Part shown: positions 1,100 to 30,902 of the stretch, one piece after another
Layout of the letters: each line of letters starts with the position of its first letter
Position numbering within the stretch: the first letter of the stretch is position 1
Virus genome (UHGV): UHGV-0110025
Source of the DNA: a virus
DNA: 30,952 bases
Direction: 5' to 3' (one strand)
Position numbers and translations under genes: made by a program
The notes under the pieces: generated by a model
What the model was told of the DNA's origin: nothing
The model's input: only the letters and a program-made list of their open reading frames with translations
Database searches by the model: none

Positions 1100-1121
1100 A
1101 ATGTCACCGAGGCAACTCTTA

Positions 1122-6682: not shown

Positions 6683-6702
6683 ATCATATTGGGAGGGATT
6701 TC

Positions 6703-6888: not shown

Positions 6889-6891
6889 GTT

Positions 6892-7148: not shown

Positions 7149-7193
7149 CCCTATGTCTAGTTGCACGGAGGTTAGAAAAAATGCTGTCCGAAT

Positions 7194-7214
7194 TAGCCCT
7201 CTCTCAGAGGGCTA
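7194..7214 (+). terminator. Perfect 9-bp-stem hairpin TAGCCCTCT-CTC-AGAGGGCTA
   Basis: Inverted repeat read from the sequence, downstream of the small-ORF cluster and upstream of the 7347 operon. A T-run (tgctgttttt) follows only after about 15 nt, so intrinsic-terminator function is uncertain. Confidence 0.35.
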
Positions 7215-7271
7215 TGAATTAAAAATGCTGTTTTTGATATGTTAACCTCTTAACAGTTTCATCTTTAAATC

Positions 7272-7299
7272 TTGTAAAGTAAAACTTTGCGTTTATGAT
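7272..7299 (+). promoter_or_regulatory. Candidate sigma70 promoter for the 7347-8947 operon
   Basis: -35 TTGTAA (7272-7277), 16-nt spacer, -10 TATGAT (7294-7299), in an AT-rich intergenic region. AAGGAG Shine-Dalgarno at 7333-7338 precedes ATG 7347. Confidence 0.35.
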
Positions 7300-7346
7300 T
7301 GATAAAAATTAAAAAAGTATGAAGAGGCTGTAAAGGAGTTTTATCA

Positions 7347-8947: not shown

Positions 8948-9073
8948 CTTTCTGCATGAGGATGCGTGAATCTGCATTATTTATTAATTCAACCCATAGA
9001 TACTGTAGGACGCAATAGGCATGGGCTTGAGACCAAAATGCAACTGCATTAAAACCGCCCCATTAAGCGGGTA

Positions 9074-9092: not shown

Positions 9093-9311
9093 TGCGCGCC
9101 AGCAGTGATGCGTAATAATAAAAATTATCCTCTGAGCGCGTCGTGATGGCGCTGTCGTGGTCGCTGCTGGTTCGTTGGTGGTCGGGTGTGTTCGTGCGCG
9201 TGAGACGCATCTGATGCGTGATGGTGGTGTGCATGGAAAAGCCACCAGGAGCAGCGGCTTTACAGGAGTGGCAGGATTCAAACTGCTAATTATGTTTCTA
9301 CTATGATTAAA

Positions 9312-10316
9312 CTAATTTACATGTATGTAGAGTTCACCGTCGCCAGACCAATCGGGACACTCTAAAACAAGCCCAAACTGCTTGAATATTTCATCAATGA
9401 TTATTGTTATCTCCCGAAAATCACCAAAACCTGTAATGTGCTGGTCATTAAACTTCCCATAAAGATTCTGAAAAGCAATGCCTAATTCTGATAATTGATA
9501 TCTTATCTTTGAGTTGGATAGTGTAAGGGATAGCTTTGGATCGTATTCTTTAATATTGATGTTTAGAGAATGGACATAACCCATCGCATAAGCATAAGAG
9601 TTGATGATTAGCCTGATACGTTTTTTTACTTCGAGATACATGTCATTCAGAGAAATATTACCGTACTTATAACCCCAGATGAGTTTTTCAATCTCGTCAG
9701 ATACTTCATTTACAACAGTGTCAAGATTCTCTAAAAATAAATCAATAGTTTCTTGAGGGGCAGACCCCGAAGACATGTAATTAGCGAGATATTCAGACCA
9801 TGCACGCGTGGCTGAGATAAGAAGCGCGCTACCATACTCGTTGACTGTAAAATTTTGGGCTAAGCATGTTAGTAAGTTTTTTTCATGTACGTGCACTAAT
9901 TCATGGTGAATGCGATGGATGACTGCGAGGTATCCTTCTTCTTTCAGTTTTAAGAAGCTACCATCATTGAAAAGCTCAACAAAAAAATCAATCGATAGCA
10001 CAAGGGTATATTCTTCACATAGCCCATCATTGCCAATTTTTGTTACTAACTGCCCGACGGCTGCGCCCTGTTTGCTATTGGTAAATGAACTAGGGGATTT
10101 GTGTTGGTAAGAGGATGTTACCTTTTGAAGAGCTTCACTGAAGTTATAGGAAACAATCACGCATTTTAATTTGGAGATATCAAGATTGAGATTTTTTGTT
10201 AAAGCTCGGATAGCTTCTAGTGTGAAATTACCGATATTATTTGCTTCTTGCTCAGTAGCGAAACCTTCGAGGGTTATTTTAAAATCAGTTTCCAAAATAT
10301 TAATCTCCGCGCCCAT
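9312..10316 (-). CDS. Hypothetical protein with HExxH zinc-metallopeptidase-like motif
   Basis: 334-aa ORF, AT-rich, containing IHRIHHELVHVHEKN (HELVH = HExxH, with a second HE just downstream). Inserted between cos and Q. No strong SD at ATG 10316. Confidence 0.65.
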   Translation of the reverse strand: MGAEINILETDFKITLEGFATEQEANNIGNFTLEAIRALTKNLNLDISKLKCVIVSYNFSEALQKVTSSYQHKSPSSFTNSKQGAAVGQLVTKIGNDGLCEEYTLVLSIDFFVELFNDGSFLKLKEEGYLAVIHRIHHELVHVHEKNLLTCLAQNFTVNEYGSALLISATRAWSEYLANYMSSGSAPQETIDLFLENLDTVVNEVSDEIEKLIWGYKYGNISLNDMYLEVKKRIRLIINSYAYAMGYVHSLNINIKEYDPKLSLTLSNSKIRYQLSELGIAFQNLYGKFNDQHITGFGDFREITIIIDEIFKQFGLVLECPDWSGDGELYIHVN

Positions 10317-10393
10317 TGTTTTGATATTCGATGCACTATAGCTTTCGCAGATTGCATCTTCAATAATGAGCGCAGAGATTGTGGCGGCCTAAG

Positions 10394-13211: not shown

Positions 13212-13376
13212 TGATGCCTCGCCGTAGTGGATTCAGGGCAAGGCTACTTAATGGCCGTCAGTGATTCGCTAAGGTGCTGTTGTGTGGGCGGTTGTCCAGT
13301 CGTCATTGGTGGTCTGGCGTGTCCTGAGTCTGGAAACTGGCGGTGACCAGTAACCTCAACCTCAGGACTCCTGACA

Positions 13377-14231
13377 ATGGCAAAAAAAGTCTCAAAATTC
13401 TTTCGCATCGGCGTCGAGGGTGACACCTGCGACGGCCGCATTATCAGCGGCAACGATATTCAGGAAATGGCCGAATCGTTTGACCCTCGCGTCTACGGTT
13501 GCCGCATTAACCTTGAGCATATTCGCGGTCTCTTTCCTGATGGCGACTTCAAACGCTTAGGCGATGTGGTTGAACTGAAAGCTGAAATAATTGACGACGA
13601 TTCTGCGCTTAACGGCAAATGGGCGTTGTTCGCCAGAATCACCCCAACCGACGACCTGATTGCGATGAATAAAAAATTGCAGAAGGTCTACACCTCAATG
13701 GAAATTCAGCCGAATTTTGCCAATACCGGCAAATGCTACCTCGTCGGCCTTGCTGTCACCGATGACCCGGCGAGCCTCGGCACTGAATACCTCGAATTCT
13801 GCCGCAACGCGAAGCACAACCCTCTGCAGCGCTTTAAGGCCAACCCTGAAAACGTTTTTTCCGCTGCCACGCTGGCCGAACTGGAATTTGAAGACGTTCC
13901 CGATACGGTGCTAAACAGCCTGGCAGATAAGGTGAAAGCCATTTTCAGCCGTAAGCAGGTCAGCGACGATGCGCGCCTGAATGATGTGCATGAAGCGGTG
14001 AGCACCGTCAGCGAGCATGTGCAGACCAACCTCACTGCGCAGGATAAGCGTCTTTCCGCTATGGAAGCCGCGCTTACCACCTTTAAACAGGAACTGACCG
14101 GCAAGATTGAAGAAACCAGCCAGGCATTTTCCGCCCTGAAAGCCACCCTCGACAAAACCGAAAGTTTCAGCCAGCCGCGACGCACGAAAGCCAGCGGCGG
14201 TGGTGGCGATGAGCTGCTGACCGACTGCTGA
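13377..14231 (+). CDS. O: Capsid scaffolding protein (P2 gpO family)
   Basis: 284-aa ORF, first gene of the rightward capsid operon, with an acidic coiled-coil-like C-terminal half. N-terminus MAKKVSKFFRIGVEGDTCDGR... matches gpO as I recall it. Confidence 0.9.
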   Translation: MAKKVSKFFRIGVEGDTCDGRIISGNDIQEMAESFDPRVYGCRINLEHIRGLFPDGDFKRLGDVVELKAEIIDDDSALNGKWALFARITPTDDLIAMNKKLQKVYTSMEIQPNFANTGKCYLVGLAVTDDPASLGTEYLEFCRNAKHNPLQRFKANPENVFSAATLAELEFEDVPDTVLNSLADKVKAIFSRKQVSDDARLNDVHEAVSTVSEHVQTNLTAQDKRLSAMEAALTTFKQELTGKIEETSQAFSALKATLDKTESFSQPRRTKASGGGGDELLTDC

Positions 14232-14307
14232 TAAACCGCAGACCAGAAACCGGGCGGTAACTCCGCCCGATGCAGTGACTAACCGATAAATTCAAACAGG
14301 AAATACT

Positions 14308-15375
14308 ATGCGCCCGGAAACCCGTTTTAAGTTCAATGCCTATCTGACCCGCGTCGCTGAGCTGAACGGCATCAGCACTGATGACGTCAGTAAAAAATTC
14401 ACCGTCGAGCCGTCCGTCACGCAAACGCTGATGAACAAAGTGCAGGAGTCATCCGCGTTTCTGCAGACGATTAACATTCTGCCGGTTGCAGAAATGAAGG
14501 GTGAGAAAATCGGCGTCGGTGTGACCGGTACTATCGCCAGCACGACCGACACCTCGGGCGATGATGAGCGTAAGACCGCAGACTTCACCGCGCTTGAGTC
14601 CAACAAGTACGAGTGCGACCAGATTAACTTTGACTTCCATCTGAAATATAAAACCCTCGACCTGTGGGCGCGTTTTCAGGACTTTCAGCGCCGCATCCGT
14701 GACGCCATTGTTAAGCGTCAGGCGCTCGATTTCATCATGGCCGGTTTTAACGGTACCACCCGCGCCGCCACCTCTGACCGCACCAAAAATCCGATGCTGC
14801 AGGATGTAGCCGTCGGCTGGCTGCAGAAATACCGCAACGAAGCCCCGACGCGTGTGATGAGCAATATCACCGATGCTGACGGTAAGGTCGTTTCGGCAGT
14901 GATTCGCGTCGGTAAAAACGGCGACTATGAGAACCTCGACGCGCTGGTGATGGATGCTACCAACAACCTGATTGACGAGGTTTATCAGGATGACCCGAAA
15001 CTCGTTGCCATCGTTGGCCGTAAGCTGCTGGCCGACAAATATTTCCCGCTGGTGAACAAGCCGCAAGAAAACAGCGAAGCGCTCGCGGCAGATATCATCA
15101 TCAGCCAGAAGCGAATCGGCAACCTGCCTGCTGTGCGTGTGCCGTACTTCCCGGCGAATGCCGTGTTAGTGACAACGCTGGAAAACCTCTCTATCTATTT
15201 CATGGATGAGAGCCACCGCCGCAGCATTGATGAAAACCCGAAAAAAGACCGCGTGGAAAACTACGAGTCAATGAATATCGACTATGTGGTCGAGGCGTAT
15301 GCCGCCGGGTGTCTGCTGGAAAACATCACCCTGGGCGATTTCACCGCACCTGCAGCACCGGAAAGCGGAGAGTAA
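14308..15375 (+). CDS. N: Major capsid protein (P2 gpN family)
   Basis: 355-aa ORF following O; length, position and high GC backbone composition fit gpN. Confidence 0.9.
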   Translation: MRPETRFKFNAYLTRVAELNGISTDDVSKKFTVEPSVTQTLMNKVQESSAFLQTINILPVAEMKGEKIGVGVTGTIASTTDTSGDDERKTADFTALESNKYECDQINFDFHLKYKTLDLWARFQDFQRRIRDAIVKRQALDFIMAGFNGTTRAATSDRTKNPMLQDVAVGWLQKYRNEAPTRVMSNITDADGKVVSAVIRVGKNGDYENLDALVMDATNNLIDEVYQDDPKLVAIVGRKLLADKYFPLVNKPQENSEALAADIIISQKRIGNLPAVRVPYFPANAVLVTTLENLSIYFMDESHRRSIDENPKKDRVENYESMNIDYVVEAYAAGCLLENITLGDFTAPAAPESGE

Positions 15376-15379
15376 GCCC

Positions 15380-16129
15380 ATGACGAGCCCCGCACAGCGT
15401 CACATGATGCGGGTCTCGGCCTCTCAAGCCGCGCAGCGGGAACAAGCCCCGCTGCGCCATGCAACCGCCTACGAGCAGATGCTGGTAAAGCTGGCCGATG
15501 ACCGCCGCACGTTGAAAACCATCCGTTCAAACGAACTGAAAGCCGCGAAAAAGCGTGAGCTGCTGCCGTTCTATGCGCCGTGGGTCGCCGGTGTGCTGGC
15601 TGATGGCCGTGGTGCGCAGGATGACATTCTGATGACAGTCATGCTGTGGCGTCTCGATGCCGGTGATATCGCTGGCGCGCTGGAAATTGCGCCATACGCG
15701 CTGAAGTACGGCCTCACCTCTGACTATCGCCGCACGACACCTTACATGCTGGTTGAGGAGGTGGCGCTTGCCGCGCTGCGCCTGCGCGATGCCGGTGAGC
15801 CTGTCGACCTCGCATTACTGCTGACCACCCTTAGCCTGACCGACGGCGCTGACGTTCCCGATATGGTGCGCGCTCGACTGCATAAGGTGACCGGTCTAAC
15901 CCTGCGCGATGCCGGTCAGAGCGCCGAAGCACTGGCACAGTTTCAGCGCGCGATGCAGCTCGACCGCAATGCCGGTGTGCGCAAAGAGATTGAGCGACTG
16001 GAGCGGGCATTGAAGCCTAAGCCCGATGCCGCGCCCCGTAAAACGACTAAACCGCGCACGCGCAAACCTGCCACCAAACCGGCGGCAAAGCGCGGGCGTC
16101 CACCAAAGGCGGTAAAAACCGCCGGTTAA
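15380..16129 (+). CDS. M: Terminase small (endonuclease) subunit (P2 gpM family)
   Basis: Start placed at ATG 15380 (MTSPAQRHMMR...), 4 nt after the N stop with GGAG upstream; the six-frame ORF extends upstream into N. Basic Pro/Lys/Arg-rich C-terminus. Confidence 0.85.
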   Translation: MTSPAQRHMMRVSASQAAQREQAPLRHATAYEQMLVKLADDRRTLKTIRSNELKAAKKRELLPFYAPWVAGVLADGRGAQDDILMTVMLWRLDAGDIAGALEIAPYALKYGLTSDYRRTTPYMLVEEVALAALRLRDAGEPVDLALLLTTLSLTDGADVPDMVRARLHKVTGLTLRDAGQSAEALAQFQRAMQLDRNAGVRKEIERLERALKPKPDAAPRKTTKPRTRKPATKPAAKRGRPPKAVKTAG

Positions 16130-16222
16130 CTGAACGCTCCCCGAGCCGGGCGGCACGCCGGTCAAAGCGGGTTTTGACCCTGACGGCGACCGGCGTCCAC
16201 CGCCCAACCTAATGAGGTTGTC

Positions 16223-16732
16223 ATGACGACAGTAATACTGAATCAGCCCGACGAACCGCAGGACGTACCGGGCGTGGTGATTCCCGCACCGGAGACGGGC
16301 GACGCAGTGATTAAAAACACGTTCTTTTTCCCTGATGTGGATCCGAAGCGGGTGCGCGAGCTGATGCGCCTTGAGCAGACGGTTTCCGATGCGCGCCTGC
16401 GCAACGCCATCAAGACCGGCATGGCGGAAACCAATGCGGAGCTTTACGACTACCGGCTGCGCCAGATTGCCGCAGGGTTTAAGACACTGGCCGACGTGCC
16501 TGACGCCGAGGAAATCGACGGCGAGAATGTGCGCGTTTTCCACTACCTCAGCGCCGTGACGGCGATGGCGACCGCCACCCTGTATGAGCGTTATCGCGGG
16601 GTTGAGGCCACCGGCAAGGGTGACAAAAAAGCCGACAGCGTCGAAACCACCATTGATGACCTGTGGCGGGATATGCGCTGGTCGGTCTCGCGCCTGCAGG
16701 ATAAGCCGCGCTGCATCGTGGGTCAGCTCTGA
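16223..16732 (+). CDS. L: Head completion/stabilisation protein (P2 gpL family)
   Basis: 169-aa ORF after M, in the conserved position and of the expected size. Confidence 0.85.
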   Translation: MTTVILNQPDEPQDVPGVVIPAPETGDAVIKNTFFFPDVDPKRVRELMRLEQTVSDARLRNAIKTGMAETNAELYDYRLRQIAAGFKTLADVPDAEEIDGENVRVFHYLSAVTAMATATLYERYRGVEATGKGDKKADSVETTIDDLWRDMRWSVSRLQDKPRCIVGQL

Positions 16733-16935
16733 TGAAAGTCTACGCGATGCAGGGCGACACCATCGACGCGCTTTGCGCCCGGTATTACGGGCGCACTGAG
16801 GGCGTGGTCGAGGCTGTGCTGCAGGCTAATCCCGGTCTGTCTGAGCTGGGCGTCATTCTGCCGCATGGCACGGCAATTGACCTGCCCGACGTGGCATCGT
16901 CACCCGTAACAGAAACTATCAACCTTTGGGAGTAA
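16732..16935 (+). CDS. X: Tail protein X (P2 gpX family)
   Basis: 67-aa ORF overlapping the L stop, in the conserved position preceding the lysis genes. Confidence 0.8.
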   Translation: MKVYAMQGDTIDALCARYYGRTEGVVEAVLQANPGLSELGVILPHGTAIDLPDVASSPVTETINLWE

Positions 16936-16938
16936 ACC

Positions 16939-17235
16939 ATGACAGAAGGGGAAAAAGGCGTCCTGTCACTGTTTGTGATTGGCGTGATGATTGTTGTCGG
17001 AAAAGTGCTGGCGGGTGGTGAGCCCATTACCCCGCGCCTGTTTATCGGCCGCATGCTGCTCGGCGGTTTTGTTTCAATGGTCGCCGGTGTTGTTCTGGTG
17101 CAGTTTCCAGATATGTCACTGCCTGCCGTTTGTGGGATTGGATCCATGCTCGGCATTGCAGGTTATCAGGTGGTGGAAATCGCCATTCAGCGCCGCTTTA
17201 AGTCACAACAGGGGGATAGCGATGCCGGTCATTAA
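16939..17235 (+). CDS. Y: Holin (P2 gpY-like)
   Basis: 98-aa protein with hydrophobic transmembrane segments (VLSLFVIGVMIVVGKVL..., LLGGFVSMVAGVVLV...) and a charged C-terminus, immediately upstream of the endolysin. Confidence 0.7.
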   Translation: MTEGEKGVLSLFVIGVMIVVGKVLAGGEPITPRLFIGRMLLGGFVSMVAGVVLVQFPDMSLPAVCGIGSMLGIAGYQVVEIAIQRRFKSQQGDSDAGH

Positions 17236-17719
17236 TACTCACCAGAATATCGCCGCGTTTCTGGACATGCTGGCCTATTCCGAAGGGACGGCGATGCATC
17301 CGCTGACGAAAAATCGTGGTTACGACGTCATTGTCACTGGCATTGATGGCAAGCCGGAAATTTTCACCGACTACACCGACCACCCTTTCGCACATGGCAG
17401 ACCAGCGAAAGTGTTTAATCGACGCGGCGAAAAATCCACGGCATCAGGGCGTTACCAGCAGCTTTATCTCTACTGGCCGCACTATCAGAAACAGCTCGCA
17501 TTGCCTGATTTCAGCCCGTTGTCGCAGGACAAACTTGCGATTCAGTTAATCCGGGAGCGCGGTGCCATTGAGGATATTAAAGCGGGGCGTATTGAGCGAG
17601 CAATTTCACGTTGCCGCAATATATGGGCGTCGCTGCCGGGTGCAGGTTACGGCCAGCGTGAGCACAGCCTCGACAAACTGGTCACTGTGTGGCGCACGGC
17701 TGGCGGGGTGATGGCATGA
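17222..17719 (+). CDS. K: Endolysin (P2 gpK / lambda R-like lytic transglycosylase)
   Basis: Start at ATG 17222 (MPVINTHQNIAAFLDMLAYSEGT...), overlapping the holin 3' end. Lysozyme-like sequence. Confidence 0.85.
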   Translation: MPVINTHQNIAAFLDMLAYSEGTAMHPLTKNRGYDVIVTGIDGKPEIFTDYTDHPFAHGRPAKVFNRRGEKSTASGRYQQLYLYWPHYQKQLALPDFSPLSQDKLAIQLIRERGAIEDIKAGRIERAISRCRNIWASLPGAGYGQREHSLDKLVTVWRTAGGVMA

Positions 17720-18129
17720 AAATCCTGATAACGCTGCTGGTGCTGGCCGTGCTCGGGCTGCTGTGGTTGCGCCATGAGAACGGCAATTTATCCCGCTCCT
17801 TTGAGACGGCAAACCGCGTCGCAAGCGAACAAAAGACGACGATTGGCATGCTGAAAAATCAGCTCAGTGTTGCCGGTCAGCTTGCCCGACGTAATGAATC
17901 CGCGCAGGTGGAACTGCGCGAACAGCTCGCAAAGGCCAGCGCAGAGGCCAGCCGCCGTGAGCAGACGATAACGAGGTTACTTAATGAAAATGAAGCCTTT
18001 CGCCGCTGGTATAACGCTGCTTTGCCTGATGTTGTGCGTCGGCTGCACACCCGCACCGCCTGCGCCAGTGCCGGTGATTGTGGTCAGCGGATGCCCGAGG
18101 GTGAGCCTTTGTCCGATGCCGGGAAGTGA
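17716..18129 (+). CDS. lysB: Inner-membrane spanin (LysB / Rz-like)
   Basis: Start at ATG 17716 (MKILITLLVLAVLGLLWL...): N-terminal TM anchor followed by a coiled-coil-like periplasmic region. Confidence 0.7.
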   Translation: MKILITLLVLAVLGLLWLRHENGNLSRSFETANRVASEQKTTIGMLKNQLSVAGQLARRNESAQVELREQLAKASAEASRREQTITRLLNENEAFRRWYNAALPDVVRRLHTRTACASAGDCGQRMPEGEPLSDAGK

Positions 18130-18274
18130 CCCGAAAACCAATGGTGACCTGAGCGCAGATATCCGCCGTCTTGAGGGCGCGCTGACCGCCTGCGCGCTGC
18201 AGGTTAAAACCGTCAAACACTGTCAGGATGAACTCGATGCAGAAGCACAAAAGCCTGCGCAAAGCGCTGATTAA
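17984..18274 (+). CDS. lysC: Outer-membrane lipoprotein spanin (LysC / Rz1-like), overlapping lysB in another frame
   Basis: ORF begins inside lysB in a different frame and extends past its stop. N-terminus MKMKPFAAGITLLCLMLCVGC has signal-peptide and lipobox-like features; mature part is Pro-rich. The LCVGC lipobox is non-canonical. Confidence 0.5.
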   Translation: MKMKPFAAGITLLCLMLCVGCTPAPPAPVPVIVVSGCPRVSLCPMPGSDPKTNGDLSADIRRLEGALTACALQVKTVKHCQDELDAEAQKPAQSAD

Positions 18275-18704
18275 CGCCGTGCCGCAGCTCCGAAATAATC
18301 CCGATATGCTGCGCCTTTTTGCCGACAACGGCCATACCGATTCCCGACTGGCGAGCTCGCTGTCGTTTGAAAAGGTGTACGTGCTTAACGTGGTGGTTAC
18401 CGACTTCACCGGTGACCTTGATTTGATATTCGTGCCGGTGCAGGCGTGGCTGCGTGAACATCAGCCGGACATTATGACCACCGACGACGGGCGGGAAAAA
18501 AGATTCACCTGGATTATTGATATCAATAACGACGATTCGCTCGATATCAGTATCAGCCTGAGGCTCACCGAGCGCACGCTCGTCAAAGAGGTCGACGGCG
18601 CGCTGCACGTCAGCTATGCCCCTGAGCCGCCACTGCCTGAGCCGGTGACGCGCCCGGTCGAGCTGTACGTTAACGGCGAACTGGTGAGTAAGTGGGATGA
18701 GTGA
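18237..18704 (+). CDS. R: Tail completion protein R (P2 gpR family)
   Basis: Start at ATG 18237 (MQKHKSLRKAL...) with AGGA 8 nt upstream; the six-frame ORF begins at 18228. Confidence 0.8.
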   Translation: MQKHKSLRKALINAVPQLRNNPDMLRLFADNGHTDSRLASSLSFEKVYVLNVVVTDFTGDLDLIFVPVQAWLREHQPDIMTTDDGREKRFTWIIDINNDDSLDISISLRLTERTLVKEVDGALHVSYAPEPPLPEPVTRPVELYVNGELVSKWDE

Positions 18705-19143
18705 ATTAACCGCGCTGCAGGAACGCCTTGCCGGTCTGATTGCCAGCCTGTCACCGGCGGCACGTCGGCAAATGGCGGCTGAGATTGCGAAAAAGCTGCG
18801 TACCAGTCAGCAACAGCGTATCAAGCGCCAGCAGGCACCCGACGGCACCCCGTATGCGGCACGAAAGCGCCAGCCGGTGCGGAGCAAGAAAGGTCGGATT
18901 AAACGTGAAATGTTCGCCAAACTGCGCACCAGTCGCTTTATGAAAGCCAAAGGCAGCGACAGTGCGGCGGTGGTGGAGTTTACCGGCAAGGTGCAGCGCA
19001 TGGCGCGGGTTCATCAGTACGGCCTCAAAGACCGGCCAAACCGTAACAGCCGGGATGTGCAGTACGAGGCGCGCCCGTTGCTCGGTTTCAATAGTATAGA
19101 TATGAGAATTATTGAGCGGTTAATAATTGGGGCTTTGGATTAA
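18697..19143 (+). CDS. S: Tail completion / virion morphogenesis protein S (P2 gpS family)
   Basis: 148-aa ORF overlapping the R stop, last gene of the capsid-lysis late operon. Confidence 0.8.
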   Translation: MSELTALQERLAGLIASLSPAARRQMAAEIAKKLRTSQQQRIKRQQAPDGTPYAARKRQPVRSKKGRIKREMFAKLRTSRFMKAKGSDSAAVVEFTGKVQRMARVHQYGLKDRPNRNSRDVQYEARPLLGFNSIDMRIIERLIIGALD

Positions 19144-19171
19144 TTATGATCTAATATATTATTTTGTGATG

Positions 19172-19200
19172 AGGCTGGATAAACACCAGCCTTGATTTTA
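19172..19200 (+). terminator. Rho-independent terminator after gene S
   Basis: Perfect 7-bp stem AGGCTGG / CCAGCCT with a 7-nt loop (19172-19192) followed by TGATTTTAT. Sits between the convergent S and HIT-like gene 3' ends. Confidence 0.45.
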
Positions 19201-19842
19201 TAGTTTGAAATCTGCGTAATTATCAATAACCTCTAGAACACCGCTGATATTGTTATCTCTGCGCCAATTCCAATTGCCATGTATCAAATTTGCATTAGAA
19301 TAAAGATATCTAAGGAACTGAGATGGTAAGAGTGGTTTGTTGCATAAAAATTCATCATAACTATTACTCATATACCACACATATCCATTTTTAATGTCAA
19401 AACTTAAATTCTCACCTTCAATTTTCTTAAAGTTAATTTCTTTATTTAGAGCATTTTCAAACTCTTGTGTATAATAAACACAGTGTATATGAGCGTGAGA
19501 AATGCACCCTCCTGAACGATCTATATTTTCACCTGCTCCGCTTTCAAAGAAAATTAGAGATCTACCAGATTGGTGGATTATAAATTCATTAAGTTCTCGC
19601 AGAATCTCCTTGCCATTACTCCGGGTATCTCGATCAAGAGCAGCAAAGGAGTTGATATGCCGCTTAGGAATCAGCATCACATGCGAATTATTTAGCGGGC
19701 CAATACTAGGTACAATTAGAAAATCATTTGTTTCTGCAATGATATTTTTCTTGTCATTTACGATTTCATCGTATCCTTTGATAAGGCTAATGCCATTTAT
19801 TTCATCGCATATTCCACAGAACGAATTACAAGAATTATTCAC
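19198..19842 (-). CDS. HIT (histidine-triad) superfamily nucleotide hydrolase/transferase-like protein with C-terminal extension
   Basis: N-terminal CNSFCGIC, then FLIVPSIGPLNNSHVMLIPKRHI and the histidine triad SGGCISHAHIHCV, matching the Hint/HIT pattern (C-x-F-C ... H-x-L-V-I-P-K-x-H-I ... H-x-H-x-H). About 90 aa follow the triad. Apparent GTG start; AT-rich island. Confidence 0.75.
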   Translation of the reverse strand: MNNSCNSFCGICDEINGISLIKGYDEIVNDKKNIIAETNDFLIVPSIGPLNNSHVMLIPKRHINSFAALDRDTRSNGKEILRELNEFIIHQSGRSLIFFESGAGENIDRSGGCISHAHIHCVYYTQEFENALNKEINFKKIEGENLSFDIKNGYVWYMSNSYDEFLCNKPLLPSQFLRYLYSNANLIHGNWNWRRDNNISGVLEVIDNYADFKL

Positions 19843-20356
19843 GTTTATTGTCTCCTGGTTTTTTAGGGAGCAATTTTTCAGCCCAAGATGCGAGTCGGCT
19901 TAGAACTAAGTCTGAAAAATATCCTAATATAAAACAAATCGAGAATGCAATTTTGGTCTTACCATGCCCTTTAATGGAGGATACAAACGTATCCGGAGAT
20001 AATATCGTATAAGAACAAAAAGCCACTAAAGCAGCTAAGAACGGAATAAAAATCCTCCAGTAGAACTTATGGGATTCCCAAGGAAAATTATACTGATTGT
20101 TTTTCCCTCTAGCAGTTACTCTATAAAACCATTTTGCATTATACACCCACCCTCCAAAAAAACCGCCAAGAATAGAAAACAAAGATATTTTATTATTATA
20201 TGACAGCTCAAAAACAAATTGGAAAAGAAAGGCGAGAATGCAACCTATTACAAAAAGAACTATTAAATAAGCAAATTCGAATTTTATTTGTTCACAATCG
20301 TTATTAAAATAAGGCACAACCTCATCATCGCCTAAGGTTTTTTTTCTTTCAGTCAT
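19835..20356 (-). CDS. Multi-pass membrane protein, upstream partner of the HIT-like gene
   Basis: About four hydrophobic helices (FAYLIVLFVIGCILAFLFQFVF, ISLFSILGGFFGGWVY, IFIPFLAALVAFCSYTIL, IAFSICFILGYFSDLVL). Its stop overlaps the HIT-like start by 8 nt. Start taken at ATG 20356 (SD GAAGGTG 8 nt upstream); the six-frame ORF extends to 20407 (TTG), with another ATG at 20401. Confidence 0.6.
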   Translation of the reverse strand: MTERKKTLGDDEVVPYFNNDCEQIKFEFAYLIVLFVIGCILAFLFQFVFELSYNNKISLFSILGGFFGGWVYNAKWFYRVTARGKNNQYNFPWESHKFYWRIFIPFLAALVAFCSYTILSPDTFVSSIKGHGKTKIAFSICFILGYFSDLVLSRLASWAEKLLPKKPGDNKRE

Positions 20357-20532
20357 TTGCCAAACACCTTCATTTTTTACTGTGAGCCAGGGTAATTGCA
20401 TATTCAACTTGGCTATTCTAATTAATTCTCACAAGATTTCATAGATGTTGAGTAGACCTCTCAGAAGTTGTTTCATTCCTCACAGAATCCATCTCGATTG
20501 CCACTAATCTTGCCGGGCGTCATCCTTCCCAT

Positions 20533-21168
20533 ATGAAAAATCTAAATTCTTTGCAAGAAATCGCACGCGCGATCCGAAATCTCATCCGTACCGGCATCGT
20601 TAGCGACGTAGACCTCAAGGAGGGGCTATGTCGTATCCAGACCGGGGGGATGCAAACCACTTGGCTGAACTGGCTGACCACCCGAGCCGGTCGTTCGCGG
20701 ACGTGGTGGGCTCCCTCGGTCGGTGAGCAGGTTCTGCTGCTGGCAATCGGTGGCGAGCTTGATACCGCTTTCGTGCTGCCGGGTATTTTCTCCGACGATA
20801 ACCCCGCCCCGTCTGCCTCGGCGGATGCGTGGCATGTGGCTTTCCCTGATGGTGCGGTCATTGAGTACGAGCCCGAAACCGGCGCGCTGACGGTCAGCGG
20901 CATAAAAACGGCCGACGTGACGGCATCGGAGTCCATCACCGCAACCGTACCGCTGGTACTGGTGAAAGCCTCGACCAGTATCACCCTCGACACCCCGGAG
21001 GTGATTTGCACCAATAAGCTAACGACGGCGACGCTTGAGGTGCAGAAAGGCGGCAAGATGAGCGGCAATATCGAACATACCGGCGGGTCACTGTCGTCTA
21101 ATGGCAAGGTACTCCACACCCATAAACACCCGGGCGACAGCGGCGGGCAAACGGGGGCACCGTTATGA
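20533..21168 (+). CDS. V: Baseplate assembly protein V / spike (P2 gpV family)
   Basis: 211-aa ORF, first gene of the baseplate/fibre operon, with a Gly-rich C-terminus (HTHKHPGDSGGQTGAP). Confidence 0.85.
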   Translation: MKNLNSLQEIARAIRNLIRTGIVSDVDLKEGLCRIQTGGMQTTWLNWLTTRAGRSRTWWAPSVGEQVLLLAIGGELDTAFVLPGIFSDDNPAPSASADAWHVAFPDGAVIEYEPETGALTVSGIKTADVTASESITATVPLVLVKASTSITLDTPEVICTNKLTTATLEVQKGGKMSGNIEHTGGSLSSNGKVLHTHKHPGDSGGQTGAPL

Positions 21169-23991: not shown

Positions 23992-24405
23992 ATGGAAAAA
24001 ATATACTACTTTGACCCTGCAAGTCCTGGTTTCTACATCTCACCTGATAGCCCGTTAATTCCTGAAGGTTCTGTAGAAATTAGAGTCGAACAATATATGC
24101 AATATGCCGGGATTGCGTGGCCGGAAAATAAAGTATTGGGTGCTGATTCTTCGGGGCTACCTGCATGGCTGGATGCGCCACCGAAGACAAAACAAGAGAT
24201 GATTGACGAGGCAAAAGGTCGCCGGGTAAATCTGATTACCGAGGCTAAAGACGCCATTAGCCTGTGGCAGACCGAGCTGCAACTCGGCATCGTCAGCGAC
24301 GATGACAAGGCCAACCTGATTGCATGGATGAAATACATTCAGGCGCTGAACGCGGTCGACACCTCAACAGCACCGGATATCGAGTGGCCGGTAAAACCGG
24401 AATAA
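23992..24405 (+). CDS. G: Tail fibre assembly chaperone (P2 gpG / Tfa family)
   Basis: Start ATG 23992 immediately after the H stop (MEKIYYFDPASPGFY...). 137 aa. The 5' part shares the low GC of the H tip. Confidence 0.75.
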   Translation: MEKIYYFDPASPGFYISPDSPLIPEGSVEIRVEQYMQYAGIAWPENKVLGADSSGLPAWLDAPPKTKQEMIDEAKGRRVNLITEAKDAISLWQTELQLGIVSDDDKANLIAWMKYIQALNAVDTSTAPDIEWPVKPE

Positions 24406-24410
24406 CGCAA

Positions 24411-24436
24411 GGCGGGCTGATGCCCGTCTTTTTTAT
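24411..24436 (+). terminator. Rho-independent terminator after the tail fibre operon
   Basis: GGCGGGC-tgat-GCCCGTC hairpin (7 bp with one G-U pair) followed by TTTTTTAT, 6 nt after the G stop. Confidence 0.5.
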
Positions 24437-24536
24437 GATTTGTTTATGTGCCATCCCCTACCCATCGCCGATAAATAGCCCCTCAACAGACCAGCCAGGA
24501 CAATAACACTTGCCCACTAACCACGGAGTTAACCGG

Positions 24537-25715
24537 ATGAGTGATTTTCACCACGGCGTGCAGGTGCTTGAGATTAACGACGGCACCCGCGTCATTTCCA
24601 CTGTTGCAACCGCAATCGTCGGCATGGTCTGTACAGCCAGCGATGCGGATGCGGCAACCTTTCCCCTCAACGAGCCGGTACTGATTACCAATGTGCAAAG
24701 CGCCATTGCGAAAGCCGGTAAAAAAGGCACTCTGGCCGCGTCCCTGCAGGCCATCGCCGACCAGTCAAAACCTGTCACAGTTGTCGTGCGTGTTGCCGAA
24801 GGTACCGGAGAAGACGCCGAAGCGCAGACCATTTCCAATATCATCGGCGGCACGGATGAGAACGGTAAATATACCGGCATCAAGGCGCTGTTGACTGCCG
24901 AAGCAGTCACCGGCGTTAAGCCGCGCATTCTCGGCGTGCCGGGTCTCGATACCAAAGAGGTCGCAGTCGCACTTGCTTCGGTCTGTATCAGCCTGCGCGC
25001 GTTTGGTTATGTCAGCGCATGGGGTTGTAAAACCATTTCCGAGGCGATGGTCTATCGCGAGAATTTCAGCCAGCGCGAGCTGATGGTCATCTGGCCTGAT
25101 TTCCTTGCATGGGATACCACCACAAACGCCACCGCACCGGCATACGCAACTGCGCGCGCACTCGGCCTGCGTGCCTATATCGACCAGACCGTCGGCTGGC
25201 ACAAAACCCTGTCTAACGTCGGCGTGCAGGGTGTCACCGGCATCAGTGCGTCAGTGTTTTGGGATTTGCAGGCATCCGGCACCGATGCTGATCTGCTCAA
25301 CGAGGCCGGGGTCACGACACTGGTGCGTAAGGATGGCTTCCGCTTTTGGGGTAACCGCACCTGCTCTGATGACCCGCTTTTCCTGTTTGAGAACTACACC
25401 CGCACCGCGCAGGTGCTGGCCGACACGATGGCCGAGGCGCACATGTGGGCGGTCGATAAGCCCATCACCGCATCACTTATCCGTGACATTGTCGACGGCA
25501 TTAACGCCAAATTCCGCGAGCTGAAATCAAACGGCTACATCGTGGACGGTGAATGCTGGTTCGACGAGGAATCGAACGATAAGGAAACCCTCAAGGCCGG
25601 GAAACTGTATATCGACTACGACTATACACCGGTTCCACCACTGGAAAGCCTAACCCTGCGCCAGCGTATCACCGATAAATATCTGGTGGATCTGGCCGAA
25701 TCGGTCAACAGCTAA
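24537..25715 (+). CDS. FI: Contractile tail sheath protein (P2 gpFI family)
   Basis: Start at ATG 24537 (MSDFHHGVQVLEINDGTRVISTVATAIVG...) with GGAG upstream; the six-frame ORF begins at 24510. Confidence 0.9.
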   Translation: MSDFHHGVQVLEINDGTRVISTVATAIVGMVCTASDADAATFPLNEPVLITNVQSAIAKAGKKGTLAASLQAIADQSKPVTVVVRVAEGTGEDAEAQTISNIIGGTDENGKYTGIKALLTAEAVTGVKPRILGVPGLDTKEVAVALASVCISLRAFGYVSAWGCKTISEAMVYRENFSQRELMVIWPDFLAWDTTTNATAPAYATARALGLRAYIDQTVGWHKTLSNVGVQGVTGISASVFWDLQASGTDADLLNEAGVTTLVRKDGFRFWGNRTCSDDPLFLFENYTRTAQVLADTMAEAHMWAVDKPITASLIRDIVDGINAKFRELKSNGYIVDGECWFDEESNDKETLKAGKLYIDYDYTPVPPLESLTLRQRITDKYLVDLAESVNS

Positions 25716-25730
25716 GGAGCCTGAAACAAC

Positions 25731-26249
25731 ATGGCACTACCCCGCAAACTTAAATATCTGAACATGTTCAATGACGGCCTTAGCTACATGGGCGTTGTGG
25801 AATCCGTGACGCTGCCGAAGCTGACCCGCAAGCTCGAAAACTATCGCGGCGGCGGCATGAATGGCGCGGCGGCGATTGACCTTGGTCTCGACGATGATGC
25901 GCTCACCGTCGAATGGTCTGTCGGTGGCCTGCCTGATGTGGCGCTGTGGGCGCAGTACGCCGCGCCGGGTGCTGACGCAGTGCCGTTGCGTTTTGCTGGC
26001 TCTTACCAACGTGACGACACTGGCGAAATCGTGGCGGTCGAGGTGGTCATGCGTGGCCGTCATAAAGAAATCGACGGCGGCGAGAATAAGCAGGGTGAAA
26101 ACACCTCGACCAAACTGTCGACCGTATGCACCTATTACCGCCTCACGATTGATGGTAGCGACGTCATCGAAATCGACACCGTCAACATGGTTGAGAAGGT
26201 GAACGGCGTCGACCGTCTGGAACAGCACCGCCGCGCAATCGGGCTGTAA
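25731..26249 (+). CDS. FII: Tail tube protein (P2 gpFII family)
   Basis: 172-aa ORF directly after the sheath gene, in the conserved position and size. Confidence 0.9.
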   Translation: MALPRKLKYLNMFNDGLSYMGVVESVTLPKLTRKLENYRGGGMNGAAAIDLGLDDDALTVEWSVGGLPDVALWAQYAAPGADAVPLRFAGSYQRDDTGEIVAVEVVMRGRHKEIDGGENKQGENTSTKLSTVCTYYRLTIDGSDVIEIDTVNMVEKVNGVDRLEQHRRAIGL

Positions 26250-26312
26250 TTCCCTGGCCGGTCAGCACTGCTGGCCGGTTATTAATCCCCATTCAGAGCA
26301 GAGAAAAACATC

Positions 26313-26648
26313 ATGGCAAAAGCACCACGTAAAACCGCTGAATTTGTTGATATGGCTGGCAATGAAATTGACACCGTAAACCCGAACGTCGTGACCCTCG
26401 ACAAGCCGATTAAGCGCGCCGGTCAGACGATTGATAAAGTCACACTGATTGAGCCGAACGCCGGTACCCTGCGCGGTGTCAGTCTGGCAGCGGTGGCGCA
26501 GTCCGAAGTCGATGCGCTGATTAAGGTATTGCCACGCATGACCTACCCCGCGCTTACGGCGCAGGAGCTTACCGCAATGAACCTGCCCGATATGCTGTCG
26601 CTGGCCGCTAAGGTGATTAGTTTTTTGTCACCGGCTTCGGCGGAGTAG
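26313..26648 (+). CDS. E: Tail assembly chaperone E (P2 gpE family)
   Basis: 111-aa ORF between the tube and tape-measure genes, ending just after a slippery heptamer. Confidence 0.8.
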   Translation: MAKAPRKTAEFVDMAGNEIDTVNPNVVTLDKPIKRAGQTIDKVTLIEPNAGTLRGVSLAAVAQSEVDALIKVLPRMTYPALTAQELTAMNLPDMLSLAAKVISFLSPASAE

Positions 26649-26800
26649 ATTTCCCGCCCGACCTGTCGACCGATGACCTGATGGCGGATATCGCGGTGAT
26701 ATTCCACTGGCCGCTATCAGATCTCTATTCCCTGAGCCTGACCGAGCTCATCACATGGCGCGAAAAGGCGCTGCAGCGTAGCGGACACCACAATGAGTAA
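26621..26800 (+). other. E': Programmed -1 frameshift site (T_TTT_TTG) and E' extension giving the E+E' fusion chaperone
   Basis: Slippery heptamer TTTTTTG at 26621-26627 in the X_XXY_YYZ register of the E frame. The -1 frame is open from the slip site to TAA 26798-26800 (...DFPPDLSTDDLMADIAVIFHWPLSDLYSLSLTELITWREKALQRSGHHNE), ending at the T start. Confidence 0.65.
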
Positions 26801-29237
26801 TAACCTGAGACTTGAGGTTTTGCTGAAAGCGGTCGACCAGGCGACCCGACCGCTTAAATCCATCCAGACCGCGAGTAAAACCCTGTCGGGCGATATTCGC
26901 GACACACAAAAAGGGCTGCGTGACCTGAACGGGCAGGCCGCGAAAATCGACGGCTTTCGCAAAACCAGCGCTCAACTGGCCGTAACCGGCCAGTCGCTGG
27001 AGAAGGCAAAGCGCGAGGCTGAAGCGCTTGCCACGCAATTCAAAAATACTGAGCGCCCGACGCGAGCGCAGGCACAGGTGCTCGAATCCGCAAAACGTGC
27101 CGCCGAGGGGCTGCAGGTTAAATACAACAGCCTCACCGAGTCGGTTAAACGCCAGCAACGCGAGCTGGGTGCCGCCGGTATCAATACCCGCAATCTGGCA
27201 AACGATGAGCGGGGGCTTAAAACACGTATCAGCGAGACGACGGCGCAGCTCAACCGGCAGCGTGAAGCATTGGCGAAGGTCAGCGCACAGCAGGCGCACC
27301 TAAACCGAGTGAAAGAGCGATATAAATCGGGTAAGGAGCTTGCCGGTAACATGGCCGCTGCAGGTGCTGCCGGGGTCGGTATTGCGACAGCGGGAACGAT
27401 GGCCGGGGTTAAATTGCTGATGCCCGGTTATGACTTTGCGCAAAAAAACTCCGAGCTGCAGGCTGTGCTCGGGGTCGATAAGCAGTCGCCAGAAATGCAG
27501 GCGTTACGCAAACAGGCGCGCCAGCTCGGTGACAATACAGCCGCTTCTGCTGATGATGCAGCCAGTGCGCAGATTATCATTGCAAAAGGTGGTGGTGATG
27601 CGGCGGCTATAGCGGCCATGACACCTGTGACTCTCAACCTGTCGCTTGCAAACAAAAAAACAATGGAGGAAAACGCGCAACTGTTGATGGGGACAAAAGC
27701 CGCCTTTCAACTTTCTAATGACGCGGCTGCACATATCGGTGATGTTCTTTCAACCACGATGAACAAAACCACCGCTGATTTTCAGGGACTAAGTGACTCA
27801 TTAAGTTACCTTGCCCCTGTTGCGAAAAATGCTGGGGTGAGTCTTGAACAGGCGGCGGCGATTACCGGCACACTTCATGATAATAACATCAGGGGGTCAA
27901 TGGCTGGGACTGGCGGCGCTGCTGTTATAACGAGACTACAGGCACCCACAGGCAAAGCATACGATGCTCTCAAAGAGCTGGGAGTTAAAACCTCAGACAG
28001 CAAAGGCAATACGCGCCCGCTATTTACCATCCTGAAAGAAATGCAGGCCAGTTTTAAGCGCAACAATCTTGGTACCTCACAAAAGGCCGAGTACGTGAAA
28101 ACGATATTCGGCGAGGAGGCTATGAAGTCTGCAAGTGTCCTTATGGCGGCAGCGGCAAGCGGAAAACTCGATAAGCTAACTGCCACGATAAAGGATTCAG
28201 ACGGTAAAACAGAGGAGCTGGTCAAGGTTATGCAGGATAACCTCGGCGGCGACTTCAAGGAGTTCCAGTCAGCATATGAGGCGGTCGGCACTGACCTCTA
28301 TGACCAGCAAGATAGCTCATTGCGTCAGCTAACTCAGACAGCAACACGGTATGTGCTAAGGCTTGATGACTGGATCAAAGACAACAAGGAGTTAGCGGAA
28401 ACTATCGGCATCATCGCCGGTGGTGCGCTGGCGCTGATTGGTATCATCGGCGGCATTGGTCTCGTTGCGTGGCCGGTTGTCATGGGGATTAATGCAATTA
28501 TCGCCGCTGCTGGCGTGCTGGGTACGGTCTTTACTGTCGTCGGTAGTGCCATTGCGACAGCGCTCGGTGCGATTACCTGGCCGATAGTGGCCGTCGGTGC
28601 GGCGATTGTGGCGGGGGCGCTACTCATCCGTAAATATTGGGAGCCCATCAGCGCATTTTTCTCGGGAGTGATTGAAGGCATCATGAGTGCCTTTGCCCCA
28701 GTCGGGGAAATGTTAGCTCCACTGGCTCCCATTTTTGATGGTCTCGGCGAGAAACTGCGCGGCGTCTGGCAGTGGTTTAAAGACCTGATAGCACCGGTTA
28801 AGGCCACGCAGGAAACGCTTGATAGCTGCAAAAATGTCGGCGTCATATTTGGTCAGGCACTGGCCTCTGCCTTGATGGCTCCGCTCAATGTTTTTAACAA
28901 GCTGCGCAGCGGTGTCGACTGGCTTCTCGAAAAGCTCGGCATCATCAACAAAGAGTCGGACAGCCTCGACCAGACCGCCGCCAAAACCAATGCCGCCACA
29001 CAGGGTAATTCCTACATCCCGGCAACCAGCACATATGGCGGCTATCAGGCTTATCAGCCAGTTACCGCACCGGCGGGGCGCTCTTACATTGACCAGAGCA
29101 AAAGCGAATACAACATCAATCTGCCGGGAGGTGTTGCGCCGGGGCATCAGCTTGACAGACAACTACGCGACACGCTCGAACAGATTGAGCGCGATAAACG
29201 CGCCCGCCAGCGTGCCAACATGACCCACGACTATTGA
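26793..29237 (+). CDS. T: Tail tape measure protein (P2 gpT family)
   Basis: 814-aa ORF with a coiled-coil N-terminal part and a Gly/Ala-rich hydrophobic central region, after the E/E' chaperone pair. Confidence 0.9.
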   Translation: MSNNLRLEVLLKAVDQATRPLKSIQTASKTLSGDIRDTQKGLRDLNGQAAKIDGFRKTSAQLAVTGQSLEKAKREAEALATQFKNTERPTRAQAQVLESAKRAAEGLQVKYNSLTESVKRQQRELGAAGINTRNLANDERGLKTRISETTAQLNRQREALAKVSAQQAHLNRVKERYKSGKELAGNMAAAGAAGVGIATAGTMAGVKLLMPGYDFAQKNSELQAVLGVDKQSPEMQALRKQARQLGDNTAASADDAASAQIIIAKGGGDAAAIAAMTPVTLNLSLANKKTMEENAQLLMGTKAAFQLSNDAAAHIGDVLSTTMNKTTADFQGLSDSLSYLAPVAKNAGVSLEQAAAITGTLHDNNIRGSMAGTGGAAVITRLQAPTGKAYDALKELGVKTSDSKGNTRPLFTILKEMQASFKRNNLGTSQKAEYVKTIFGEEAMKSASVLMAAAASGKLDKLTATIKDSDGKTEELVKVMQDNLGGDFKEFQSAYEAVGTDLYDQQDSSLRQLTQTATRYVLRLDDWIKDNKELAETIGIIAGGALALIGIIGGIGLVAWPVVMGINAIIAAAGVLGTVFTVVGSAIATALGAITWPIVAVGAAIVAGALLIRKYWEPISAFFSGVIEGIMSAFAPVGEMLAPLAPIFDGLGEKLRGVWQWFKDLIAPVKATQETLDSCKNVGVIFGQALASALMAPLNVFNKLRSGVDWLLEKLGIINKESDSLDQTAAKTNAATQGNSYIPATSTYGGYQAYQPVTAPAGRSYIDQSKSEYNINLPGGVAPGHQLDRQLRDTLEQIERDKRARQRANMTHDY

Positions 29238-29250
29238 GGGGGATTAAACG

Positions 29251-29736
29251 ATGATGCTTGCTCTCGGAATGTTTGTGTTTGAACTTCGCACCCTGCCTTA
29301 CCAGTCGATGCAGCATTCGAAAGATTATCGCTGGATGTCCAATGACCGGGTGGGTAAACCACCTGCCTATCAGTTTCTTGGCGAGGGGGAAACCTCTATA
29401 CAGCTTGCTGGTACGCTATACCCCGCTATCACTGGCGGTTGGATCTCACTAAAGGCTGTAGAGGTGATGGCCAATGAAGGCAGAGCGTGGCCGTTGATAG
29501 AGGGAACCGGAAATATCCTCGGGATGTATATCGTCGATAAAGTATCGACTACACGCACCGAGTTTTTCAGTGATGGTGCGGCCAGAAAGATTGATTTCAC
29601 GCTTTCGCTAAAACGGGTTGATGAATCGCTGACAGAGATGTTTGGTGACCTGAATAAACAGGCCAGTGAGCTTCTCGGCTCTGCCGGTAATTTGACAGAT
29701 AAACTGCAGGGTATGCCCGGAGGTTTCACTGCATGA
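29251..29736 (+). CDS. U: Tail protein U (P2 gpU family)
   Basis: 161-aa ORF following T, in the conserved position. Confidence 0.85.
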   Translation: MMLALGMFVFELRTLPYQSMQHSKDYRWMSNDRVGKPPAYQFLGEGETSIQLAGTLYPAITGGWISLKAVEVMANEGRAWPLIEGTGNILGMYIVDKVSTTRTEFFSDGAARKIDFTLSLKRVDESLTEMFGDLNKQASELLGSAGNLTDKLQGMPGGFTA

Positions 29737-30902
29737 TAACGGGGATGGCAATTGACGCCGGTGCCAGCCTTGCACCGGCATTTATGTTGACGCTGAACAG
29801 CCAGGACATTACCAGCAATTTTAGTGACCGATTGATTTCTCTCACCATGACCGATAACCGGGGTTTTGAGGCTGACCAGCTCGATATTGAGCTTGATGAT
29901 ACCGACGGGAAAGTTGAGTTACCCCTGCGCGGGGCAGTGCTGACGCTGTGGCTTGGCTGGCAGGGCTCGGCGTTGCTGAATAAGGGGGATTTTACGGTCG
30001 ATGAGATTGAGCACCGGGGAGCGCCTGACACCCTGACCATCCGGGCGCGCAGCGCGGACTTTCGCGGCACGCTAAATTCCAGGCGTGAAGAGTCATGGCA
30101 TGACACCACCATCGGAGAACTGGTCAGCACCATCGCAAAACGCAATAAACTGACGGCCAGTGTCGCTGATTCACTGAAAAAAATCCCGGTACCGCATATC
30201 GACCAGTCGCAGGAGTCCGACGCGGTGTTTCTGACCCGGCTAGCTGACCGAAACGGAGCTGCGGTGTCAGTGAAAGCGGGGAAATTGCTGTTTCTGAAAG
30301 CCGGTAGTGCGATGACGGCCAGCGGCAGAGCCATCCCGCAAATGACGCTGACCCGTAGCAATGGTGACCGTCATCAATTTGCTATTGCCGACCGTGGGGC
30401 TTATACCGGCGTAACGGCAAAATGGTTGCACACTAAAGACCCGAAGCCGCAAAAGCAAAAAGTGACGCTGAAACGCCAGCCAAAAGAGAAACACCTACGC
30501 GCACTGGAGCACCCGAAAGCAAAGCCTGTCAGCAAAAAGACAAAGGCCAAAAAAGAGCAGGAGGCTCGCGAGGGTGAGTATATGGCCGGTGAAGCCGATA
30601 ACGTGCTGGCGCTGACAACGGTCTACGCATCAAAGGCGCAGGCGATGCGTGCCGCTCAGGCTAAGTGGGATAAACTGCAGCGAGGCGTTGCGGAGTTTTC
30701 AATCACACTGGCGCTAGGGCGAGCGGATTTATTTCCTGAGACGCCTGTACGTGTGTCGGGCTTTAAGCGCGTAATAGACGAACAGGTATGGTTAATCAGT
30801 AAAGTAACTCACATTCTGAATAATAGTGGCTTCACGACGGGGTTAGAGCTTGAGGTTAAGCTATCTGATATAGAGTACAGCTCAGAGGAAAGCGAAATAT
30901 AA
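29733..30902 (+). CDS. D: Tail protein D (P2 gpD family)
   Basis: 389-aa ORF overlapping the U stop, last gene of the tail operon within the window. Confidence 0.85.
   Translation: MITGMAIDAGASLAPAFMLTLNSQDITSNFSDRLISLTMTDNRGFEADQLDIELDDTDGKVELPLRGAVLTLWLGWQGSALLNKGDFTVDEIEHRGAPDTLTIRARSADFRGTLNSRREESWHDTTIGELVSTIAKRNKLTASVADSLKKIPVPHIDQSQESDAVFLTRLADRNGAAVSVKAGKLLFLKAGSAMTASGRAIPQMTLTRSNGDRHQFAIADRGAYTGVTAKWLHTKDPKPQKQKVTLKRQPKEKHLRALEHPKAKPVSKKTKAKKEQEAREGEYMAGEADNVLALTTVYASKAQAMRAAQAKWDKLQRGVAEFSITLALGRADLFPETPVRVSGFKRVIDEQVWLISKVTHILNNSGFTTGLELEVKLSDIEYSSEESEI

Follow-up and report, generated by a model that had tools for sequence, protein, structure and literature searches.

As the initial annotation stated, phage P2 carries the accessory gene fun(Z) between its tail-fibre genes and its tail sheath gene FI, in an interval that measures 2377 bp. 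What, then, occupies the same G–FI junction in a related prophage in which the fibre genes and the sheath gene lie almost next to each other? We addressed this question in a window (the whole stretch of viral DNA that was analysed) of 30,952 nt. The interval is very probably an unoccupied junction of two late operons in a prophage of the phage 186 type, nearly filled by regulatory signals.

The prophage and the limits of its G–FI junction

The window represents a P2-family prophage, complete or almost so, that belongs to the phage 186 type (Eganvirus-like). According to blastn, its structural genes are 77–94% identical to those of phage 186 (U32222), and the tail-gene block at 24382–30879 aligns with 186 positions 14031–20519 at 87.4%. 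The genes that frame the junction, the ends of the prophage and the accessory genes are as follows.

50–1147, minus strand: integrase.
7347–8947, plus strand: PD-T4-10 A and B, two overlapping genes (E = 6.5e-69 for A, 3.3e-169 for B).
9312–10316, minus strand: 334-aa gene, phrog_11743.
19198–20407, minus strand: two overlapping genes between S and V, at the position of P2 orf30.
23992–24405, plus strand: tail-fibre assembly (chaperone) gene, equivalent of P2 G and 186 orf45, 137 aa (Pfam PF02413 Caudo_TAP, E = 3.7e-32).
24537–25715, plus strand: tail sheath gene FI (J in phage 186), 392 aa (Pfam PF04984, PF17482, PF22671).
30902: end of gene D; the window ends 50 nt later, at 30952.

The interval between the stop codon of the fibre-assembly gene and the FI ATG measured 131 bp (24406–24536), in agreement with the earlier estimate of about 130 bp. 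The chaperone gene is the final gene of the V operon; its ATG at 23992 lies 1 nt past the fibre gene stop, and it ends with a TAA at 24403–24405. FI opens the F operon (FI–FII–E–T–U–D) and shares about 93% DNA identity with 186 J. A mechanically called TTG at 24510 was rejected as the FI start and the ATG at 24537 was taken, because this ATG and the N-terminus MSDFHHGV, which is common to relatives, align with 186 J, Midge and P2 FI. At the other end of the operon, the B/Ogr homologue, present in 126 of the 167 sequences searched, starts 6430–6445 nt past the FI start in relatives. At this spacing, the B/Ogr activator gene would start here at about 30970, some 20 nt beyond the window end at 30952, so that the right end of the prophage and attR would also fall outside the window.

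The segment 22864–24381 had no blastn match to phage 186. This fibre module takes in the end of gene I, the gene for the tail fibre (321 aa, Gp53-like C-terminus) and the chaperone gene, and it matches phages Midge, EtG and Klebsiella phage RCIP0057 at 92–93%. DNA homology to 186 picks up again at 24382, with 24 nt of the chaperone gene left, which places the boundary of the host-range module just within this gene.

Other segments without blastn homology to 186 include 7157–9037, 9248–10393 and 19091–20560. They bear out the earlier proposal that the accessory load of the prophage lies at the A–cos–Q and S–V sites, where PD-T4-10, phrog_11743 and the S–V pair are all unmatched in 186. The "therefore" of the initial annotation would further imply that the sites trade off against one another, a hypothesis that goes beyond this distribution. 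The PD-T4-10 pair, within 7157–9037, occupies the A-to-cos hotspot in place of orf97 of phage 186; PD-T4-10 is an experimentally validated toxin–antitoxin abortive-infection defence system (PMC9519451). The phrog_11743 gene is located between cos (about 9074) and the portal gene, is absent from 186, and gave no Pfam or PADLOC match. Phage 186 has only 69 bp between S and V, whereas the prophage has two genes there, within 19091–20560: one of 214 aa, HIT/DcpS_C-like (PF01230, PF11969; phrog_23000), and one of 190 aa, phrog_22917, with no assigned function. Neither of them had a PADLOC match. The remaining 186-unmatched segments are the left-end immunity and early regions, 6682–6892, the window ends and the fibre module described above. 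The stretch 6893–7156, upstream of the PD-T4-10 cargo, shares 75% identity with part of the tum (SOS antirepressor) region of 186 and overlaps a 63-aa ORF (6957–7148), pointing to a tum-like gene or its remnant.

Regulatory content of the 131-bp interval

The initial annotation held that the interval contains just a terminator and the FI ribosome-binding site. Both are present, the former as a hairpin at 24409–24430 followed by T6 and the latter as GGAG at 24525–24528, but "just" does not hold, as a predicted late promoter with its activator site lies between them at 24445–24513. The inventory was incomplete because most of the interval is late promoter. The following elements were assigned.

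24409–24436, plus strand: predicted intrinsic (Rho-independent) terminator of the V operon, from a terminator scan; it maps onto 186 t45.
24445–24464, plus strand: predicted late-activator site of the 186 B/P2 Ogr type; it aligns without gaps to the B site of 186 pJ, and the activator site annotated for P2 pF encloses it.
24476–24513, plus strand: predicted core late promoter, homologue of 186 pJ and P2 pF, from mapping of the annotated pJ with its initiation point and of the P2 F-operon start.
24476–24481, plus strand: −35 element TAGCCC, weak, with a 17-nt spacer to the −10.
24499–24504, plus strand: −10 element GACAAT.
About 24511–24513, plus strand: probable transcription start, transferred from the 186 and P2 annotation.
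24514–24536, plus strand: 5′ leader of the FI operon, about 24 nt, with the Shine–Dalgarno GGAG 8 nt before the ATG.

The terminator hairpin has a 9-bp stem (AAGGCGGGC/GCCCGTCTT, six G–C pairs) and a 4-nt loop (TGAT), and only 3 nt (24406–24408) separate the stem from the stop codon. It thus has the form of an intrinsic terminator, a G+C-rich hairpin with a T run 3′ of the operon's last gene. The terminator scan alone was not above chance, with one terminator found in a 1.1-kb region versus a shuffle expectation of 1.4. Among relatives, a hairpin with a T-run, strictly defined, lay at most 70 nt from the chaperone stop in 49 of 57 distinct compact junctions, versus none of 570 equal-sized control windows within FI. 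In an alignment of 49 junctions, 84.4% of cells were paired in the window's register compared with 35–57% when the 3′ arm was slid, and both-sided (compensatory) changes affected four of the nine stem pairs (27 cells); none of 500 shuffles reached the observed value. Unrelated stems were found at the same place in eight further junctions (e.g., GCCCTCC/GGAGGGC and GACGCCCTC/GAGGGCGT), with at least eight different stem sequences there in all, so that structure rather than sequence is conserved among relatives. RNAalifold returned no consensus structure for the 49 terminator regions because MAFFT had put a minority of unrelated hairpins in other columns; it was replaced by explicit pair counts in the majority register and by the position-independent hairpin census. 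A bidirectional terminator was rejected, as the hairpin lacks a T-run on its minus-strand side. If the element acts like its annotated counterpart t45 in phage 186, it would end V-operon transcription at 24409–24436.

P2-family late promoters carry a partial dyad upstream of the −35, centred at about −55 to −58, and are served by a late activator that is a C4 zinc-finger protein (Ogr/B/Delta). In the window, the half-sites TGT (24447–24449) and CCA (24462–24464) are separated by N12, with ten nt between the T-run and TGT, and the TGT-N12-CCA is centred 57–58 nt upstream of the probable start. The published Ogr/B-type consensus, described with the four Ogr-dependent P2 late promoters, is TGT-N12-ACA (PMC3931495). 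The distal half-site here is CCA rather than the consensus ACA, and 186 pJ and P2 pF carry the same CCA. From the activator site through the ATG (24445–24539), the window aligns without gaps to both 186 and P2.

The same elements recur at fixed distances from the FI ATG in the 149 distinct upstream sequences of relatives: TGT-N12-[AC]CA at −90 ± 3 in 118 of them (1 after shuffling), GA[AC]AAT at −38 ± 3 in 111 (2 after shuffling), and GGAG at −12 ± 3 in 148 (0 after shuffling). The place directly 5′ of FI, the dyad and the homology to mapped promoters all point to an Ogr/B-dependent late promoter. This promoter takes up about two thirds of the 131-bp gap, more than the terminator and ribosome-binding site combined. 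The leader is the most conserved block of the interval, and approximately 25 of the 131 nt fall outside the named elements, part of them a highly conserved GAYAAATAG block that runs into the −35. The alignments and counts establish the anatomy, homology and conservation of these predicted elements at the level of sequence.

Taken together, the layout suggests how expression would pass from one operon to the next. The V-operon transcript, with the baseplate, fibre and fibre chaperone genes, would end at the intrinsic terminator. Late in infection, a zinc-finger activator of the B/Ogr type would bind TGT-N12-CCA and, from about −58, recruit RNA polymerase to a promoter whose −35 is poor and whose −10 reads GACAAT. 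The FI–FII–E–T–U–D transcript would then begin about 24 nt before the FI ATG, and GGAG would drive its translation. Activator binding and the start site are predicted here from homology to experimentally annotated elements of 186 and P2.

A composite pattern (TGT-N12-CCA-N9-AATAG) gave six matches over the whole window versus seven expected, and was exact only at the pJ site. Being no better than chance, it is of no use for locating other late promoters, which were therefore read by eye. Two candidate sites were noted where the other late promoters are expected: a TGT-N12-CCA at 13281–13298, between the terminase and scaffold genes, in a position like that of the single shared B site of 186 pV/p12, and a less perfect TGT-N12-AGA (or TGT-N10-ACA) at 20469–20486, 64 nt before the V ATG.

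Two readings of the interval compete with an unoccupied junction that carries its own promoter. If only a terminator and a ribosome-binding site were present, the sheath operon would be read through from the V operon, and the sigma-70 consensus scan, which called no promoter on the plus strand of the interval, agrees with this. We discount that miss, since a poor −35 is typical of late promoters that depend on an activator, and the matter is settled by homology to promoters that have been mapped. Read-through is also hard to reconcile with a strong, conserved terminator directly upstream, with the gap-free homology of 24445–24513 to the annotated B-dependent pJ of 186 and pF of P2, whose starts are mapped, and with an activator site and −10 kept at fixed offsets in 111–118 of 149 relatives. 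Moreover, the block remains beside FI in cargo-bearing relatives, 1–4 kb from the fibre genes. We consider read-through very improbable.

We give equally little credence to a functional small gene or small RNA hidden in the interval. Three mechanical ORFs of 53–71 aa overlap it, at 24324–24506 (plus strand), 24293–24454 (minus strand) and 24483–24698 (minus strand), and an RNA derived from the 3′-UTR and ending at the terminator is compatible with the sequence. However, no ORF of at least 20 aa lies wholly within 24406–24536, and the three overlapping ORFs were rejected as genes since stops or a lost start break each of them in most or all of eight relatives whose junctions are 86–95% identical. 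Rfam gave nothing at gathering score in the whole window and only chance-level hits around the interval in a search up to E = 10 (best 15.2 bits, E = 6.8). On both strands, folding was no stronger than in shuffled controls (z = −0.09 and −0.35), and the terminator hairpin was the only stable fold. Neither covariance models nor folding thus pointed to a small regulatory RNA or a cis-regulatory RNA family, and a hidden small ORF and an antisense RNA were both rejected; every conserved block is accounted for by the terminator, the promoter or the ribosome-binding site. With no inner ORF, no conserved overlapping ORF, and no conserved small RNA by the ORF, Rfam and folding tests, the description of the junction as free of cargo stands, and no non-structural gene precedes FI there as in an occupied fun(Z)-type hotspot.

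Occupied and vacant junctions among relatives

The initial annotation had proposed a comparison of this junction across related prophages. We fetched 160 relatives via the FI protein, 80 from viral contigs and 80 from bacterial genomes, which gave the 149 distinct upstream sequences used above. The last plus-strand fibre-assembly gene was found with an iterated profile, and the length distribution covers the 116 of 160 loci in which it was recognised. The other 44 were left out of the length counts; on inspection, they showed other fibre architectures, many of which stop approximately 110 nt short of FI, and invertase genes directly adjacent to FI. Junction lengths were distributed as follows.

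All 116 loci: 59 of at most 170 bp, 27 of 171–500 bp, 30 above 500 bp; mode 129–131 bp.
FI identity at least 92%: 24 of at most 170 bp, 1 of 171–500 bp, 2 above 500 bp.
FI identity 85–92%: 23 of at most 170 bp, 12 of 171–500 bp, 28 above 500 bp.
FI identity below 85%: 12 of at most 170 bp, 14 of 171–500 bp, 0 above 500 bp.

Junctions of about 130 bp, the compact form, are more frequent than any other state; of the 27 closest relatives in which the assembly gene was recognisable, 24 have one. Others carry cargo. Among reference phages, the junction measures 128 bp in 186, 131 bp in Midge, 1038 bp in EtG and 2377 bp in P2. The empty slot is therefore the default in the 186 lineage and is common across the whole family. 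In P2-like phages, the fun locus has been described as the second locus enriched in defence genes (Vassallo et al, 2022, PMC9519451), and accessory hotspots have been described within P2 tail genes (PMC13586616). In line with these descriptions, the cargo that we found at the G–FI junction of other relatives includes toxin–antitoxin pairs, retrons and invertase modules, with the following examples.

L083, 2019–5501, minus strand: type I-B retron-like pair in a P2-type viral contig (RT_I-B, E = 2.7e-106; ATPase-Toprim, E = 1.6e-210).
L072: PDC-S15.
L082: DpdB-like protein.
L119: HicAB.
L113: acyltransferase-3 and S24 peptidase.
Phage EtG: DUF1493 pair.

A Hin/Gin-type serine invertase gene (PF00239 and PF02796) lies directly 5′ of FI in L032, L039, L060, L064, L079 and L098 (also in L104, L158 and L159). 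These relatives have alternative fibre tips and chaperones on the minus strand, that is, an invertible host-range switch at the junction.

In P2-type relatives that carry cargo, the plus-strand terminator lies 103–125 nt before the FI ATG, the spacing seen in the window, and the cargo is inserted between the chaperone stop and this terminator, so that terminator and late promoter stay beside FI (L074, L063, L081, L056, L071–L073, L076, L077, L082, L083 and others). The promoter block of cargo-bearing relatives adjoins FI at 1–4 kb from the fibre genes. In L129, L131, L133, L143 and L147, the terminator follows the stop codon, and an extra 100–280 bp lie downstream of it.

These relatives bear on two further readings of how the junction came to be empty and how it is filled. 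The vacancy could be secondary, owing to a recent deletion of cargo and not to an ancestral compact state. EtG, L004 and L005, whose FI is 96–99% identical, have 1.0–1.5 kb at the junction, and since such close relatives carry cargo, gain and loss at this site must be frequent. Against a deletion here, the 131 bp contain no leftover sequence and can be aligned over their full length with 186, Midge and further compact junctions, the stop codon is only 3 nt from the terminator stem, and 24 of the 27 closest relatives are compact as well; without a dated phylogeny, a clean deletion looks identical to ancestral emptiness. We regard secondary loss as improbable. A different proposal concerns the way in which cargo arrives: because P2-type cargo-bearing relatives keep the terminator 103–125 nt before FI with the cargo upstream of it, terminator and late promoter might form a fixed insulating cassette of approximately 125 bp that moves with FI and marks the place where cargo lands. 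The 3 nt at 24406–24408 would then be a vacant landing point, with recombination at terminator hairpins driving turnover of the cargo. This proposal is unlikely in our judgement and would be of modest interest if true. The preferred reading remains that of an unoccupied junction between two late operons.

Comparison with phage 186 and P2

P2 was the wrong yardstick for this junction, because the prophage is of the 186 type, the 186 junction is itself 128 bp long, and 24 of the 27 closest relatives are compact. Emptiness is the default state and not a departure from it. The layout was already known from the published 186 genome, and both the empty and the filled states of the site are documented; the absence of cargo is a correct but ordinary negative observation, which came with an incomplete inventory. 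Annotation should give the interval two labels, V-operon terminator and late promoter of the sheath operon (B/Ogr-dependent), in place of empty spacer, and phage 186, not P2, is the proper reference for the prophage. For surveys of defence hotspots, it adds one more instance of a fun locus left empty, as is common in the 186 lineage. The prophage has nothing in the second P2-family cargo hotspot, PD-T4-10 in the cos-proximal hotspot, and two genes without assigned function at the S–V site.

By every sequence-level criterion, the junction corresponds to t45/pJ of phage 186 (the pF promoter of P2). The annotated positions used for the two phages were as follows, those of 186 being taken from GenBank record U32222.

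Phage 186, orf45–J interval: t45 at 14058–14081; B-protein site at 14091–14110; pJ at 14122–14159; initiation at 14159; J ATG at 14183.
P2, before FI (NC_001895): activator-binding site at 17555–17583; F-operon start at 17626–17628; FI ATG at 17652.

The orf45–J interval of phage 186 has the same order and spacing of stop codon, terminator, activator site, promoter, 24-nt leader and ATG as the window. It measures 128 bp compared with 131 bp, and neither interval has cargo. The differences lie in the terminator stem (GGCGGGC/GCCCGTC in the window, GGCGGC/GCCCGC in 186) and in the base 5′ of TGT, which is A in the window and T in 186. Upstream, the two diverge, as the fibre and chaperone genes of the window form a host-range module unlike that of 186 and like that of Midge, EtG and RCIP0057.

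The G–FI junction of P2 has the same flanking genes and, directly before FI, a homologous activator site (TGT-N12-CCA), −10, start, leader and ribosome-binding site. Unlike the 131-bp, gene-free interval of the window, it spans 2377 bp, carries the 1.6-kb fun(Z) on the opposite strand, and has its terminator 365 nt after G. The fun-locus hotspot of P2 occupies the same genomic position, which is filled in relatives and vacant in this prophage. The recognisable defence system of the prophage, PD-T4-10, is located at the other hotspot, which extends from A to the portal gene.
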